Positions 5,584 through 63,491 of a stretch of 64,000 nt of DNA are shown piece by piece. How positions within the stretch are numbered: the first letter of the stretch is position 1; the number at the start of each line of letters is the position of its first letter. A program made the translations under genes and the position numbers. This DNA is from Candidatus Zixiibacteriota bacterium (GTDB lineage Bacteria; Zixibacteria; MSB-5A5; RBG-16-43-9), in NCBI GenBank assembly GCA_022865345.1, contig JALHSU010000194.1:9249-73248 (forward strand), in the 5' to 3' direction. Under the pieces are notes generated by a model. The model saw nothing but the letters and a program-made list of their open reading frames with translations. It searched no databases and was not told where the DNA came from.

Positions 5584-7542
5584 TTAACTTATCTTCGCCC
5601 CGGGTTTAACCTCTTTATCCACTGTTAATATGGTCAGATTTTCCCCGTCCTGAGCGGCAAGGAGCATCCCTTTTGATTCTATCCCTTTTATGCGAGCAGG
5701 TTTTAAATTGGCAAGAAGGATAATCTTCTTTCCGACCAGCTCCTCTGGCTTATAATATTCCGCAATTCCGGCGACTATTTCTCGATTTTCGTCCTCGAAT
5801 TCAACTTCAAGCTTTAAAAGCTTTTTTGCCCCTTCGACTTTTTCTGCTCCTATGACTTGAGCCACCCTTATATCCATTTTAGCGAAATCCTCAATAGTTA
5901 TTTCCATCTTCTCTTCTTTTGCAATTGAAACTTCAGATTTTTCTTTTGAGACCTCAGCCGGTTTTGCCTCTTTAAACCGAGGAAACAAGGGAACGATCTC
6001 CCGGATTTTCGTTCCGGGTTTTAAATAACCCCAGTCTTTTTCTCTTTCTAAATTCGGGATTATCTCATTTTGTGCTAACCCTAAAATCTCTCTTAACTTC
6101 TGACATTTCTCCGGCAGAGCAGGATAGAAAAGAAGACTGATAATCCTCAAGGTTTCTGCTGAGGCATAAAGAACCGTTCCCAATCGGGTTTTATCCTTTT
6201 CCTTGGCTAAATTCCAGGGAGCGGTCTTGTCCACATAGCGGTTGGTGAAGCGGACTAACTTCAGGACCTCATCAAGAGCCTGGTTGAGATTCAGCTCCTC
6301 GATTGAGTCAAAAACCACCTCGACTGTCTTCAGGGCTGAATTTTGCAGCTCCTTTTCATCCACAGAGTAATCCGAAGGCTTTGGAATCTCTCCGCGAAAA
6401 TGCTCCTTGATCAGCTTCAAAACCCGGCTGGCTAAATTGCCAAAATCGTTTGCTAAATCAGAATTATATTTCTCCTCTAATCTTTTCTCCTGAATGTCTC
6501 CATCCTGTCCGAAGGGAAAATGAGTCAAAAGGAGATAGCGGGTAGCATCACTGCCATACCTTTCTATCAGATAATAAGGGTCGATCACGTTGCCTAGAGA
6601 CTTCCCCATTTTTTGACCATTCACCGTGAAAAAACCGTGGATGAAAAGTATGTCTGGTGTTTTTTCTCCGAGCGCAATCAGCATCGCAGGCCAGTAGATG
6701 TTGTGGAATTTCAAAATGTCTTTACCTAAAAGATGTATAACTTTCCCCTCGGTCCACCATTTCTTGAATTCATCAGGATTATCCCCGTAACCGATAGCTG
6801 AAATATAATTTGGCAGAGCATCCACCCAGACATAGGTCTTCTGAGTAGTGTCGAAGGGCAAAGTTATCCCCCAGGTAACCTTTTCTCTCGAAATCGAAAA
6901 ATCCTCTAACTCCTGCTTGAAAAGCCCCAGGGTCTCTTTTTTCTTCTCCTCTGGCAAAATCCTTATTTTATCTTCTGTGATTAGTTTTTCGACCTGTGAC
7001 AGGTATGAGGAGAGCCTGAAAAAGTAGTTTTTCTCAGTTACCTTTTGCGGAGGTTTCAGATGATTGGGGCAAAGTCCGTTTACTAAATCTTTTTCGGTGA
7101 TGAATTTCTCGCAGCCCACGCAGTATAATCCAGTATATTCTCCAGGGTAAACTATCTTTTGACCTTTTTCATCTTTTGCTTGGTAAAGTATGTCCAGAAG
7201 TTTTTCAACTGCCTGAACGTGCCTTTCATCAGTGGTCCGCACGAAATAATCGAAGGATATATTCAGCTTTTCCCAGACCTCCTTGAAGCGTTGGCTATTT
7301 CTATCGCAAAACTCCTGCGGAGAGATTCCCGCCTGCTCGGCTGCCTCTGCTACCTTGCTGCCGTGCTCATCTGTTCCGGTCAAAAAGAAGGTCTCGTCCC
7401 CTTTGATGCGATGAAATCTGGTAAGGATATCAACCGCAACAGTGGGATAGGCGTGTCCGATATGCGGTTTATCGTTCACATAATATATGGGAGTGGTAAT
7501 AAAATATCTTCCTTTTTTGATCTGAGGCTTTAAGCCAGCCAA
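5584..7542 (-). CDS. metG: methionine--tRNA ligase with C-terminal tRNA-binding (EMAP/Trbp111-like) domain
   Basis: HIGH-type motif (PHIGHAY), KMSKS-type motif (KMGKSLGN) and a Zn-knuckle CxxC...CPNH. The C-terminal domain is of the ...GAEKVEGAKKLLKLEVEF... type. Confidence 0.92.
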   Translation of the reverse strand: MAGLKPQIKKGRYFITTPIYYVNDKPHIGHAYPTVAVDILTRFHRIKGDETFFLTGTDEHGSKVAEAAEQAGISPQEFCDRNSQRFKEVWEKLNISFDYFVRTTDERHVQAVEKLLDILYQAKDEKGQKIVYPGEYTGLYCVGCEKFITEKDLVNGLCPNHLKPPQKVTEKNYFFRLSSYLSQVEKLITEDKIRILPEEKKKETLGLFKQELEDFSISREKVTWGITLPFDTTQKTYVWVDALPNYISAIGYGDNPDEFKKWWTEGKVIHLLGKDILKFHNIYWPAMLIALGEKTPDILFIHGFFTVNGQKMGKSLGNVIDPYYLIERYGSDATRYLLLTHFPFGQDGDIQEKRLEEKYNSDLANDFGNLASRVLKLIKEHFRGEIPKPSDYSVDEKELQNSALKTVEVVFDSIEELNLNQALDEVLKLVRFTNRYVDKTAPWNLAKEKDKTRLGTVLYASAETLRIISLLFYPALPEKCQKLREILGLAQNEIIPNLEREKDWGYLKPGTKIREIVPLFPRFKEAKPAEVSKEKSEVSIAKEEKMEITIEDFAKMDIRVAQVIGAEKVEGAKKLLKLEVEFEDENREIVAGIAEYYKPEELVGKKIILLANLKPARIKGIESKGMLLAAQDGENLTILTVDKEVKPGAKIS

Positions 7543-24946: not shown

Positions 24947-25145
24947 AATTTTCCGGAGAGAATATTAAAGATTCGACTGCCCGAATTTTAGTCCACAGGA
25001 CAGAAAGATGATAATAGCTCCCTTTTTCTTAGTCAAGATAAATCTGATGAAGAAGTAGGGGCACGTTGCAACGTGCCCCCACGATCCCACTCAGAAAGCA
25101 GATTGCTTCGTAGTCTAAATGGACTCCTCGCAATATCAGATGATC

Positions 25146-38694: not shown

Positions 38695-38744
38695 GTAGGG
38701 GCGTTCAATCCTGCGGATCCGTTTCCCGGATTGAACGCCCCTAC
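38695..38744. repeat. perfect 17-bp inverted repeat gtaggggcgttcaatcc ... ggattgaacgcccctac (cruciform/hairpin)
   Basis: Read directly. The loop is 16 nt. Confidence 0.6.
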
Positions 38745-38790: not shown

Positions 38791-38878
38791 AAACTCATCC
38801 CCTTACCCCTTCTCTTAACAAGAGAAGGGGAACATTAGTCCCTCTCTTTTTTTAAGAGAGGGATTCAGGGTGAGCTCG
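38791..38878. repeat. Correia-like element P, copy 2 (aaactcatcccc ... agggtgagctcg)
   Basis: Hairpin A is ccccttctctt-aac-aagagaagggg (11-bp stem) and hairpin B is ccctctctt-ttttt-aagagaggg (9-bp stem). The TIRs carry 1-2 mismatches. It lies upstream of hemW. Confidence 0.7.
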
Positions 38879-38928
38879 GACTGTTAAATGGTTTACAGTC
38901 AATCGCCTTAAGGTATTCGACGCAATAA

Positions 38929-39471
38929 CTACTTCTTTGTCCCTTTCGCTTTTTCTTCTTTCATCTTGGCTAACAAATCCTCAGATGATTGACCAACCGT
39001 GGCGATCGACCCCATTAGCTGGACGATATGCCATTGGTTATCTTCTTTTATCATCGTCATAGAAAGCCGTAGAAGGGCGCGCATCATTTGTTCTGCGATC
39101 ACCAGGTCATACGGGACTTCGAAAAGTGCCGAAGCTAACTTACCATCCGGACTGATTTGCATCGAAAGATATCTCAGCTCGTCGAATTTCTCCAGTTTCA
39201 GCAATTCCCAATCAACTTCAAAATGCGATTTCAATCCATCTAAATTTTTAAACACCTCGGCTGAATCTGTGCCTAACACCAAAAGCTCTGAAGATTTAGA
39301 AAACAAATTGAGAATACCCTCTGTATCCTTGGCTTGTATTGATTTGCTATAGCTAATCGCCACCTCCTCAACCGCCTTTTTCTCTTTAGCGATTTCCTCC
39401 GGTGTCATCTTTTGGGGACCGCAGCCAGCAACTAAAGCCACTATCAAGAGCAATGGAATAATACGGGACAC
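38929..39471 (-). CDS. hypothetical lipoprotein
   Basis: Signal peptide plus lipobox LVAGCG. 180 aa. Its family is not recognised. Confidence 0.5.
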   Translation of the reverse strand: MSRIIPLLLIVALVAGCGPQKMTPEEIAKEKKAVEEVAISYSKSIQAKDTEGILNLFSKSSELLVLGTDSAEVFKNLDGLKSHFEVDWELLKLEKFDELRYLSMQISPDGKLASALFEVPYDLVIAEQMMRALLRLSMTMIKEDNQWHIVQLMGSIATVGQSSEDLLAKMKEEKAKGTKK

Positions 39472-39540
39472 AAAACCTCCTTTTAAAAAGTTATGATTAG
39501 ATATTATTTTTTATCATCCGTTTCTTTTTACCGTCGTTCT

Positions 39541-39651
39541 CGAACTCATCCCCTGGCCCCTTCTCCCCGCCTTTGGCGGGATCTTCGACTTACAAAGAGA
39601 AGGGGGACACAAGTCCCTCTCTTTACAAGAGAGGGATTTAGGGTGAGTTCA
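39541..39651. repeat. Correia-like element P, copy 3
   Basis: TIRs cgaactcatcccc ... agggtgagttc. Hairpin B is ccctctctt-tac-aagagaggg. The cccgcc-tttg-gcggg hairpin sits at a different position from copy 1. It lies in the 5' leader of the lipoprotein gene. Confidence 0.7.
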
Positions 39652-39711
39652 GACTGTGATATGGTTTTCCCCAGCCTACCTTTTTGACTGATAGAGCCTT
39701 GACTTTGCCTT

Positions 39712-39741
39712 TAATAAATTGAGAAATTCTTTGTTTGTCAA
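39712..39741 (-). promoter_or_regulatory. sigma70-like promoter inside repeat module Q3 (TTGACA-N18-TTATTA), reading toward the lipoprotein gene 38929..39471
   Basis: Minus strand: -35 at 39741..39736 and -10 at 39717..39712, positionally equivalent to the promoter in Q1. Confidence 0.5.
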
Positions 39742-39751
39742 CAGGGAAAAT

Positions 39752-39784
39752 AACAAAAAAAAGGGCGAGGAAACCTCGCCCCTA
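39752..39784 (-). terminator. rho-independent terminator of lepB
   Basis: Minus strand: gtaggggcgaggtttcctcgccc followed by TTTTTTTT, about 25 nt after the lepB stop. Confidence 0.7.
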
Positions 39785-39806
39785 CCTGTATGCTGTCTAC
39801 TGTTTG

Positions 39807-40469
39807 CTATTTCACTATTGTCCCTATCCTATCTAGACGCAGTCTATCACCAAGATGTCCTAAATTGTAAAAGATTATCTCCAGAAGAGGGGTGATGTAT
39901 GGGCTTCTGAATTTGGGAGCGTGCGGGTCTTCTGTCCAGGACCAGTACACGATCATCGCTTTGCCTTTGATGAAACTCCGGTCCAAAAAACCCCATTCCC
40001 TGGAATCCTGGCTATTGTCCCGGTTATCCCCTAAGACGAAAAGGTGACCTGCTGGAACTTGAACCGGCCCAAAGTTATCCCTGGTAGAATAATCCTCAGG
40101 CAGGATCCGAGAATCTGAATGTTTTGCCAAAAATGGGTCTGGAATCATTTTCCCGTCCACATAGACAATCTTACTCCTGATCTCCACAGTCTGCCCTTCC
40201 AGGGCAACTACCCTTTTCACCATATCCTTGCTGGGATTCAGGGGGTATTTAAACACAATGACCTCGCCCGGCTTGGGCTCTTTGTAGCGATAATGAAGCT
40301 TATTGACCAGAACAAAATCCCCGGAAAGTAAGGAATCTTCCATTGAGGAAGAAGGAAGCTTGTATGCCTGGACTACAAAAGTTCTCAAAAGGAAAGCAAT
40401 CAAAAGGGATAGGAACAATACTTCTACAAAACCTATAATTGAAGGTTTCTGCTCTTTTCTTTTCATCAT
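39807..40469 (-). CDS. lepB: signal peptidase I
   Basis: N-terminal TM. The catalytic Ser motif is in the SSSMEDSLLSGDFVLVNK block; the catalytic Lys lies in MVKRVVALEGQTV, with the adjacent GDNRDNSQDSR box. Confidence 0.88.
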   Translation of the reverse strand: MMKRKEQKPSIIGFVEVLFLSLLIAFLLRTFVVQAYKLPSSSMEDSLLSGDFVLVNKLHYRYKEPKPGEVIVFKYPLNPSKDMVKRVVALEGQTVEIRSKIVYVDGKMIPDPFLAKHSDSRILPEDYSTRDNFGPVQVPAGHLFVLGDNRDNSQDSREWGFLDRSFIKGKAMIVYWSWTEDPHAPKFRSPYITPLLEIIFYNLGHLGDRLRLDRIGTIVK

Positions 40470-47778: not shown

Positions 47779-47864
47779 CGAACTCACCCTGAATCCCTCT
47801 CTTAGAAAGAGAGGGACTAAAGCTCCCCTTCTCTTCCTAAGAGAAGGGTCAGAGGATGAGTTCG
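47779..47864. repeat. Correia-like element P, copy 4 (inverted orientation)
   Basis: cgaactcaccctgaatccc ... ggatgagttcg. Hairpins are ccctctctt-aga-aagagaggg and ccccttctctt-cct-aagagaaggg. It lies between the convergent Mut7-C and GH57 genes. Confidence 0.7.
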
Positions 47865-63075: not shown

Positions 63076-63491
63076 TCTTTATTCCCTCCTTTGGGGCAAG
63101 GCGAAAATCCCAATCTTTTGTAGGGACAGGGCTTGTCCCTGTCCGACTTCAATACCGATAAACTCCACCCACTCCTCACAGGGCGGAGTTAAACTCCGCC
63201 CCTACGCGGACTTGATTTCATAACCTCTGACAGAAACGTCGGACGCTACGGAATCTTTCCCCTCCCTTGATGGGAGGGGACAGGGGAGGGTGACCCCCTC
63301 TCCCTAACCCTCTCCCACCAGGGGAGAGGGGATTTTTATGCATCGTCACGGACGATGCACTCCATATCAATTATGAACAGACAGGATGCCTGTTCACCTA
63401 CATCTGATAAAAAAACTTCGGGGCTGGGAGAGAAAATTCCCAGCCCCGGGAGGGGAGCTGATGGGCAAAAGAGTTTCAGTCTTTATATCTA
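63076..63491. repeat. ~415-bp non-coding array of at least seven distinct GC-rich perfect hairpins
   Basis: ggacaggg/ccctgtcc; gggcggagtt/aactccgccc; cccctccc/gggagggg; ccctctcc.../ggggagaggg; tgcatcgtc/gacgatgca; gaacag/ctgttc (family H relative); ggggctggga/tcccagcccc. No ORF of 60 aa or more. Confidence 0.65.

Follow-up and report, generated by a model that had tools for sequence, protein, structure and literature searches.

How have two unrelated genes come to lie behind the same promoter-like sequence? The question is raised by a stretch of 64,000 nucleotides (nt) from Candidatus Zixiibacteriota bacterium (contig JALHSU010000194.1, positions 9,249 to 73,248; the whole stretch is called the window below), in which two intergenic loci, 30750-31180 and 39536-39812, have in common a repeat termed the P element, a conserved segment with promoter-like hexamers, an identical 23-nt hairpin, and AGTAGAC heptamers. 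A preliminary description of this DNA placed every one of these elements correctly and took them for one repeated unit, a mobile promoter cassette upstream of a Ser/Thr kinase gene at one locus and of a lipoprotein gene at the other, to be explained by repeat-mediated promoter delivery or by a shared regulatory input. The comparison reported here leads to a different answer, which is held with good confidence: the repeat is the conserved upstream region of a multi-copy Ser/Thr kinase gene family together with the nine codons that open its reading frame, and one orphaned copy of it now heads the lipoprotein gene.

Read along the minus strand, each locus opens with the end of the upstream gene (lepB stop codon at 39807, uvrA stop codon at 31219) and continues with AGTAGAC-type heptamers, then the hairpin, the conserved segment, P, and the downstream gene. 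The conserved segments (30862-30962 and 39651-39749) are identical at 77/101 positions (76%) and at 43/52 (82.7%) in a 52-nt core, and a degenerate pattern of 45 nt drawn from this core has two matches in the window, only at these loci, where shuffled sequences expect none. TTGACA-N18-TTATT(G/A) is present at both loci on the minus strand, with TTGACA at 30954-30949 and 39741-39736, and points toward the downstream minus-strand genes, just as first described. These encode a Ser/Thr protein kinase of 975 amino acids (aa) with TPR repeats (27807-30734, N-terminus MIGKTISHYKILEKLGEGGMG; Pfam Pkinase E = 1.4e-57, plus TPR families) and a 180-aa SnoaL_3-domain lipoprotein (38929-39471, Pfam E = 4.3e-6) with a GTG start, an AAGGAGG Shine-Dalgarno sequence, and the lipobox LVAGC; the upstream genes encode UvrA and signal peptidase I (LepB), and HemN and LepA are encoded nearby. 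Copy 1, on the uvrA side, has 138 extra nt (30963-31100) between hairpin and conserved segment. The composite is three independent repeat families side by side, a 3'-end module, a kinase head, and the P element, and the single unit of the preliminary description dissolves accordingly: the motif in the conserved segment occurs with and without P, and the heptamers and hairpin belong to the 3' end of the upstream gene.

The kinase family and the lepB locus

The window was compared with 150 fetched loci, labelled within the range L002 to L150, which together make up a search space of ~1.07 Mb, or 2.15 Mb with both strands. In this space, 39 copies (32 distinct sequences) of the promoter-like motif, ~55 nt long and reading TTTCTTAGTTGACAATCAAATAAYTTCTCAATTTATTAARGG, were found, with a regular expression and nhmmer in agreement, and because all have E < 1e-10 while none weaker appears up to E = 1, they constitute a discrete family. 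Nearly every copy with enough downstream sequence leads into a kinase gene starting MIGKTISHY..ILEKLGEGGMGVVYKAQD. Twenty-nine array-first kinase genes have the motif in front of them, against none of the 16 internal kinases of tandem arrays, and the only non-kinase cases are the orthologues of the lepB locus and L053. In the window, the intact copy lies at 30912-30962 (TTTATT 30931-30926; nhmmer E = 1.4e-13) and is 55/55 identical to that of L142, and the orphan copy lies at 39699-39751 (TTTATT 39718-39713; E = 9.5e-14); orphan copies score 46.9-51.9 bits versus 42-56 bits for kinase-linked ones. The tandem arrays themselves (L127, L128, L134, L144, L147, L148, L150) consist of two to four paralogous Ser/Thr kinase-TPR genes that lie on the same strand, with the motif at the first gene only, and their internal genes often have a start-P-linker-start arrangement of their own.

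The history of the orphan copy can be read from relatives. By BLASTN, the window groups with Zixibacteria among the fetched loci, L054 (Zixibacteria RBG_16_43_9) being 90-94% identical over more than 4 kb and L028 syntenic at 85% identity; an exact LepB protein match was found in three near-identical metagenome contigs, all with the same intergenic region except for one additional heptamer-sized unit in one strain. In the window, L135, and L002, the order is lepB, motif, decayed start, P, SnoaL gene, P, and HemN gene. By tBLASTN, lepB of L146 (96%) is followed by the motif with a vestigial start and P, then by a kinase of 775 aa, a degenerate P, and HemN (90%), while in L136 the order is lepB (87%), motif, P, kinase, and HemN. 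Because L146 and L136 keep a kinase in the same slot, copy 2 is best understood as a surviving kinase head whose body has been replaced. In L028, the closest syntenic relative, the slot between the two P elements holds a frameshifted glycosyltransferase-like gene (1521-2776), the N-terminus of which lies in another frame, indicating a pseudogene or an assembly error.

The lepB position of the repeat is kept in L135, L124, L028, L146, and L136, and the uvrA position in L142, where uvrA (96.5%), heptamers, hairpin, the 138-nt insert, motif, P, and kinase follow one another as the orthologue of copy 1. Synteny of these positions extends to relatives with as little as 87% LepB identity; they are vertically inherited rather than the result of promoter delivery, and the kinase and SnoaL genes share a head because one locus lost its kinase, not because a promoter moved. 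Homology among the relatives of the lepB locus breaks at the right end of the first P and resumes at the start-like left flank (38878-38906) of a second P element (38791-38877), which lies on the minus strand in direct orientation upstream of HemN. The orthologous P before HemN is found in L028, where it is preceded by ATGATTGGAAAAATG..., and in L146.

Anatomy of the head and the upstream 3' ends

The kinase head is made up of the motif, a leader of ~30 nt ending in the Shine-Dalgarno-like AAAGG, and the first nine kinase codons. It comes in three layouts: motif, leader, and ATG, without P; motif, leader, vestigial start, P, linker, and the real ATG; and motif, a hairpin-rich leader of ~150 nt, and kinase, with or without P. 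In at least nine loci the motif has no P. The kinase ATG of P-free loci (L125, L132, L134, L137) lies 73-74 nt past the motif start, and in P-containing loci a vestigial ATGCTGGG... start lies 74-77 nt past it. Because this distance is the same, the relic ATG is taken to be the original kinase start, and the ~27 nt between leader and P are a vestigial kinase start region. P follows directly after codon 9, and after it come a linker of 21-24 nt and a complete new kinase start; the preliminary description was thus correct in placing P between the motif and the real start codon. The long-leader heads (L119, L127, L128, L131, L138, L063, L106, L136, L147, L150) have ~150 nt after the motif, bracketed by GGTAGCCGCAAGC...GCGGCTACC; repeated hairpins lie inside this leader, and a TATAAT-like block immediately follows the motif. 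The window has no such leader.

Both loci of the window show the P-containing layout, on the minus strand. In copy 1, the relic ATGCTGGGCAAAAAAATTTCACATTAC (30862-30888, MLGKKISHY) adjoins P and agrees at 23/27 positions with the real start ATGATTGGCAAAACAATTTCGCATTAC, found 21 nt past P. The P element (30756-30861) is of a 106-nt form with a nested 21-nt hairpin and an RNA fold z-score of -5.9, and the 21-nt linker GATAACTGAGCGTAATAGATT (30735-30755), with stops in three frames, directly precedes the real ATG and is of a type shared with L022, L130, L133, L136, and L142. In copy 2, the short leader AAGGCTCTATCAGTCAAAAAGGT (39678-39698), which includes the AAAGG, is homologous to the leaders found at kinase genes without P and is followed by the decayed start AGGCTGGGGAAAACCATATCACAGTCT (39651-39677), in which ATG has become AGG and 17/27 positions match the kinase start of the window; the corresponding vestigial starts read ATGCTGGGGAAAACCATATCACAGTCT in L135 and ATGTTGGGG.... 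in L146. P (39542-39650) adjoins the decayed start and is here of a 109-nt form with a nested 24-nt mini-hairpin, folding as a multibranch structure closed by its terminal inverted repeat. The linker GAGAACGACGGTAAAAAGAAACGG, of a type that precedes intact kinase starts in L150 and L149, occupies 39491-39541 together with what a by-eye alignment suggests to be the remnant of a second kinase start (ATGAT..., ATGATAAAAAATAATATC...).

The vestigial ATG of copy 1 opens an upstream open reading frame (ORF) of 43 codons that ends at a TGA in the right end of P, and the reading through P is open in ~18 of the 26 kinase-linked copies. A functional upstream ORF through P is too weak a case to claim; that the 85-nt and 109-nt forms agree in frame follows simply from the nested insert being a single, discrete 24-nt element. 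Also rejected was the idea that the 27-nt start repeat is a fresh target-site duplication at each insertion: the left copies form clades of their own (ATGCTGGG..., ATGGTTGG...), so most of them were inherited. Another element, of ~90 nt (TCCCAAAACTGCC...GGGAGGTGTGATCT), interrupts kinases after about codon 20 (L128 ~7100-7250, minus strand; L129 ~550-650) and is followed by a fresh ATGATTGG start, so the regeneration of a start after insertion into the 5' end of a kinase gene is not unique to P.

What lies upstream of the head belongs to other genes. The two copies of the hairpin GGGCGAGGAAACCTCGCCC, at 31101-31119 and 39763-39781, do not differ (23/23 bases with the flanking CTAC), with no further exact copy elsewhere in the window and none in shuffles, and GTCTACT/AGTAGAC heptamers were located by repeat searches at 31147-31176 after uvrA and, as a degenerate array overlapping the lepB stop codon, at 39788-39808. 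A third array, three AGTAGAC units at 27790-27811, is newly linked in here: the TAG stop of the 975-aa kinase lies inside its first heptamer, and a different terminator hairpin follows. Arrays begin at or within the stops of several unrelated genes, and their copy number differs between near-identical strains, the array of L002 (880-900) having 7 extra nt. Heptamers and "AGGGTAGGGGCGAG...CTCGCCC" hairpins stand directly after the stops of lepB, uvrA, 975-aa kinases, and other genes, both in the window and in related loci. Because the same module trails the kinase's own stop and other genes, a place in the kinase cassette is ruled out for it; the heptamers and the GTAG-GGGCGAGG...CCTCGCCC hairpin are the 3'-end or terminator module of lepB or uvrA, separate from the kinase head. 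The double role of the hairpin as terminator of the upstream gene had been pointed out before, including the difference between the two sides. On the lepB side (GTAG-GGGCGAGGTTTCCTCGCCC plus T8, 39753-39785, minus strand), the test for an intrinsic terminator finds a GC-rich stem-loop of 10 pairs (39783-39761) with its T-run of eight. On the uvrA side, the exact copy (31101-31123) has no T-run; the adjacent insert, given earlier as ~130 bp and found to be 138 nt, is hairpin-rich, is also present in L142, and brings a second, terminator-like hairpin, GGACAGAACATCGTTCTGTCC, with a T-run at 31087-31067.

Further hairpins of this kind are scattered through the window. GTAGGGGC plus a palindrome occurs at 25055, 31101, 38695, 39763, and 63181, with a variant, GTAGGGAC, at 63120, and the GTAGGG(G/A)C-plus-palindrome hairpins at 25055-25078, 38695-38744, 63120-63144, and 63181-63205 have differing stems. 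Taken with the hairpins at lepB and uvrA, they point to a family resembling repetitive extragenic palindromes (REPs); the enrichment of GTAG before hairpins is modest (5.8% vs 2-4% for other tetramers).

The motif behaves as a promoter would be expected to. It comes after an upstream terminator, stands ~73 nt before the start codon where P is absent, is limited to array-first kinases, and is more conserved than its flanks, with high information content at positions -8 to +45 and none outside, where the sequences are unalignable; the downstream kinases are only 37-85% identical as proteins. The upstream terminator ends 15-25 nt before the motif, which is too little space for a further promoter. 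Among the 32 distinct copies, TTGACA varies little or not at all (TTGACT in six), 27 metagenome copies having been retrieved with a pattern that fixes GTTGAC. An invariant TTTATT lies 17 nt past the -35 element, and a conserved C-A ~7 nt further (motif positions 36/37; 39707/39706 and 30920/30919 in the window) is the predicted transcription start, at ~30919 and ~39706, in agreement with the start sites predicted before. The sigma70-like promoter originally proposed stands only in its -35 half: the -10 candidates TTTATT (17 nt), TTATTA (18 nt), and TATTAA (19 nt) each lack A2 or T6, and since a consensus scan is silent, the motif has to be downgraded from a canonical sigma-70 promoter to one with a perfect -35 and an atypical -10. 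An alternative -10, in a TATAAT/CATAGT block 28 nt past TTGACA, was rejected, as it has no -35 at a workable spacing and fits the start-site region better.

Put together, these elements outline how the two genes may be expressed. The 3'-end module would terminate or insulate the lepB or uvrA transcript. At 30.9 kb, where the arrangement is intact, a minus-strand transcript most likely begins at ~30919, includes the vestigial start and P in a structured 5' leader, and would express the 975-aa kinase. At 39.7 kb, head and P are still present, the kinase body would have been lost, and the SnoaL-like gene lies in the slot between two direct P elements, where it is probably transcribed from the orphaned kinase promoter with a start near 39706. 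The head is passed on in place, and it is the gene downstream of P that differs between relatives.

Several considerations count against an orphaned kinase head that is an active promoter. P contains weak terminator-like hairpins, and read-through to the SnoaL gene is assumed because many intact kinases have P at the same place. The direction of change, loss of a kinase in the window rather than its gain in L146 and L136, is suggested by the vestigial start codons in an unrooted comparison. The 27 further loci obtained by scanning a degenerate form of the motif against metagenomes were fetched by the motif itself, so that the statement that the motif is followed by a kinase is unbiased whereas the converse, that a kinase is preceded by the motif, is biased. 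Promoter activity and start sites are deduced from sequence features, and the sigma-70 consensus scan does not call the motif at either locus. Finally, conservation over 45 nt exceeds what a minimal promoter needs, which makes an extra bound factor or an alternative sigma factor likely; the motif is accordingly regarded as a promoter region, probably with such a factor or a specialised sigma factor.

The last point leads to a possibility that deserves tentative consideration, namely that the motif, taken as 45-55 nt, functions chiefly as an operator, bound by a dedicated regulator or an alternative sigma factor through which the kinase arrays and, by inheritance, the SnoaL gene are regulated together, so that it would be a regulon signature and not an ordinary housekeeping promoter. 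The spacer and flanks within the motif are as conserved as the hexamers, the -10 is atypical, the motif is confined to array-first kinases, and orphan copies score as high as kinase-linked ones, all of which speaks for an operator; against this, no candidate factor has been identified, and gene conversion among heads could also explain the conservation. Such an operator is compatible with the orphaned kinase head and would refine it rather than exclude it.

The P element and the genes behind the heads

P is a widespread palindromic repeat with a core of ~85 nt, GAACTCACCCTrAATCCC...GGGGATGAGTTC, and is found in metagenome-assembled genomes (MAGs) labelled Zixibacteria, Calditrichota, Ignavibacteria, Bacteroidota, and Eisenbacteria. 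Scanning a genome collection with the P terminus GGGATTYAGGGTGAGYTC gave at least 120 loci, where ~69 chance matches are expected for the pattern; the MAG labels among the matches listed are Zixibacteria, Calditrichota, Ignavibacteria, Bacteroidota, and others, and these matches hold at least 96 distinct full-length elements with both inverted repeats. In the fetched loci there are at least 125 copies with both inverted repeats, with a modal length of 85 nt. The 96 listed elements were obtained without reference to the motif; nine of them have a kinase start no more than 70 nt downstream, ~45 times as many as chance predicts, and ~90% of those listed have neither kinase nor motif nearby. The flanks of P are lineage-specific. 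Some contigs are particularly rich in P, such as L064 with at least four copies within 1.3 kb, and a further copy in the window lies at 47780-47863. A mini-hairpin of the form CCCGCC-NNN-GGCGGG (a unit of 21-24 nt, for example TCGAAGATCCCGCCAAAGGCGGGG) is nested at differing positions in P, in the window at 39563-39586 and 30823-30843. A related CCGCCGAAGGCGG is found within the loop of the lepB terminator hairpin in relatives (L028, L124, L146), upstream of the motif. The mini-hairpin looks like a mini-element that inserts into other hairpins.

The stems of P are almost invariant: none of the 26 stem pairs shows a compensatory change across 53 diverse canonical copies, which gives no support for a selected RNA structure, and P acts as a sequence family. 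Rfam searches of the whole window at gathering thresholds and of both loci at E ≤ 1 returned noise only, ruling out a known RNA family for these loci.

At kinase genes, P also marks a boundary of sequence identity. Between the window and L142, sliding identity is 99% up to the vestigial start and ~75% from P onward. In the orthologous pairs compared (window/L142, L022/L140, L130/L139, L129/L134, and L119/L128), identity is 96-100% as far as the vestigial start, upstream region and motif included, and falls sharply to 55-80% from P, and motif identity is essentially uncorrelated with the identity of the kinase 5'-coding sequence (Spearman 0.11). L127 and L150 are 96-100% identical except for a clean 136-nt insertion or deletion comprising start, P, and linker. 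This pattern suggests that recombination at P or at the duplicated start may swap the gene behind a stationary promoter. A more far-reaching version, considered unlikely, would have kinase heads act as fixed expression sites. Downstream genes would be swapped or reshuffled at the junction formed by P and the regenerated start; most would be kinase paralogues drawn from promoter-less tandem arrays, with a foreign gene such as that of the SnoaL lipoprotein taking the place now and then. P itself would target codon 9 of this signalling-gene family without disrupting it, the element supplying a new start. On this supposition, initiation at the real start might be translationally coupled to the vestigial ATG and its upstream ORF through P.

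The mobile cassette of the preliminary description, in which P and the promoter segment transpose as a unit and deliver a promoter to unrelated genes, has become quite improbable. It draws on real features: P is a dispersed repeat with terminal inverted repeats, the L127/L150 difference is a clean gain or loss in otherwise near-identical sequence, and the window pair, with 52 nt at 83% and non-homologous genes both upstream (uvrA, lepB) and downstream (kinase, SnoaL), agrees with an operational definition of mobile promoters (PMC3488235). Yet 29 copies of the motif head homologous kinases, and at the lepB locus relatives still have a kinase in the slot; the positions are syntenic; motif and P largely occur apart, the former without P in at least nine loci and most listed P elements without motif or kinase; the segment joining motif and P is a vestigial coding start rather than transposon sequence; and nhmmer finds no copy of the motif in the P-bearing Calditrichota, Ignavibacteria, and Bacteroidota loci among the matches listed. 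Least probable of all is a transcribed cis-regulatory RNA leader, a riboswitch or attenuator instead of a promoter, since, despite the very stable fold from motif through P (z-scores -5.9 and -3.0) and the frequently open upstream ORF, Rfam and compensatory changes lend it nothing, the promoter has no other place than the motif, and the fold stability comes from P, which is mostly found away from this gene family.

Comparison with known systems

Three kinds of known system invite comparison with the orphaned kinase head. Putative mobile promoters have been defined as upstream regions of at least 50 nt and at least 80% similarity, shared within a genome by genes that are not homologous (Matus-Garcia, Nijveen and van Passel 2012, PMC3488235; PMC3575422), and clusters with homologous downstream genes were excluded as gene-plus-promoter duplications (PMC3488235). 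The 52-nt core exceeds these values and the uvrA and lepB coding sequences do not align; the downstream coding sequences fail to align for the window pair alone, whereas across the family there are 29 homologous kinases. The non-homologous case of the window thus differs from a mobile promoter in that the downstream gene was replaced behind a stationary one. A pair resembling mobile promoters can arise without promoter movement when a member of a gene family loses its body and another gene inherits the head, which calls for caution in genome-wide screens of promoter propagation. No published description of the ~55-nt motif was found in the literature searched, and a search for Zixibacteria and kinase gave nothing specific; the promoter head is new and uncharacterised, is specific to one gene family, and has a single orphaned copy. 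As a discrete sequence at the head of Ser/Thr-kinase tandem arrays in an uncultivated phylum, it offers a handle on the control of expanded signalling families.

The second kind comprises repeats of the REP type and miniature inverted-repeat transposable elements (MITEs) that are co-transcribed in 5' leaders, such as the Correia elements of Neisseria and the enterobacterial ERIC/IRU and REP/BIME sequences. P resembles them in being short, dispersed in many copies, and non-coding, with terminal inverted repeats and strong hairpins, and in lying within transcription units, in predicted 5' leaders; the hairpins behind lepB and uvrA, each a GTAG with a GC-rich palindrome, are REP-like in form and in lying 3' of genes. 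Unlike them, P has no recognisable promoter hexamers, the motif being separate and occurring also without it, and in this lineage P sits at one precise site, after kinase codon 9, with a regenerated start. A fixed codon position with a regenerated start is not a known property of Correia or ERIC elements. The repeat that flanks P at kinases, a 27-nt copy of the start region on one side and an unrelated linker of 21-24 nt on the other, is not a typical target-site duplication, and P is common to MAGs labelled as several phyla. A literature search with the terminal sequences of P returned unrelated primers only.

The third kind consists of expression sites and cassette-exchange systems, in which genes are exchanged behind a fixed promoter, as in integron cassettes behind Pc or in gene conversion of the pilE/pilS type. 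No integrase, attI/attC signature, or store of silent cassettes was identified, so the likeness is one of layout: a fixed promoter site followed by an exchangeable gene, with two direct P elements around the SnoaL slot and a break in homology exactly at P. Exchange could proceed by ordinary homologous recombination among paralogues. The position of P after codon 9, the regenerated start, and the homology break at the same place hint at repeat-mediated exchange of kinase genes, and if this is true, P-based exchange would amount to a cassette-exchange system for sensory kinases.

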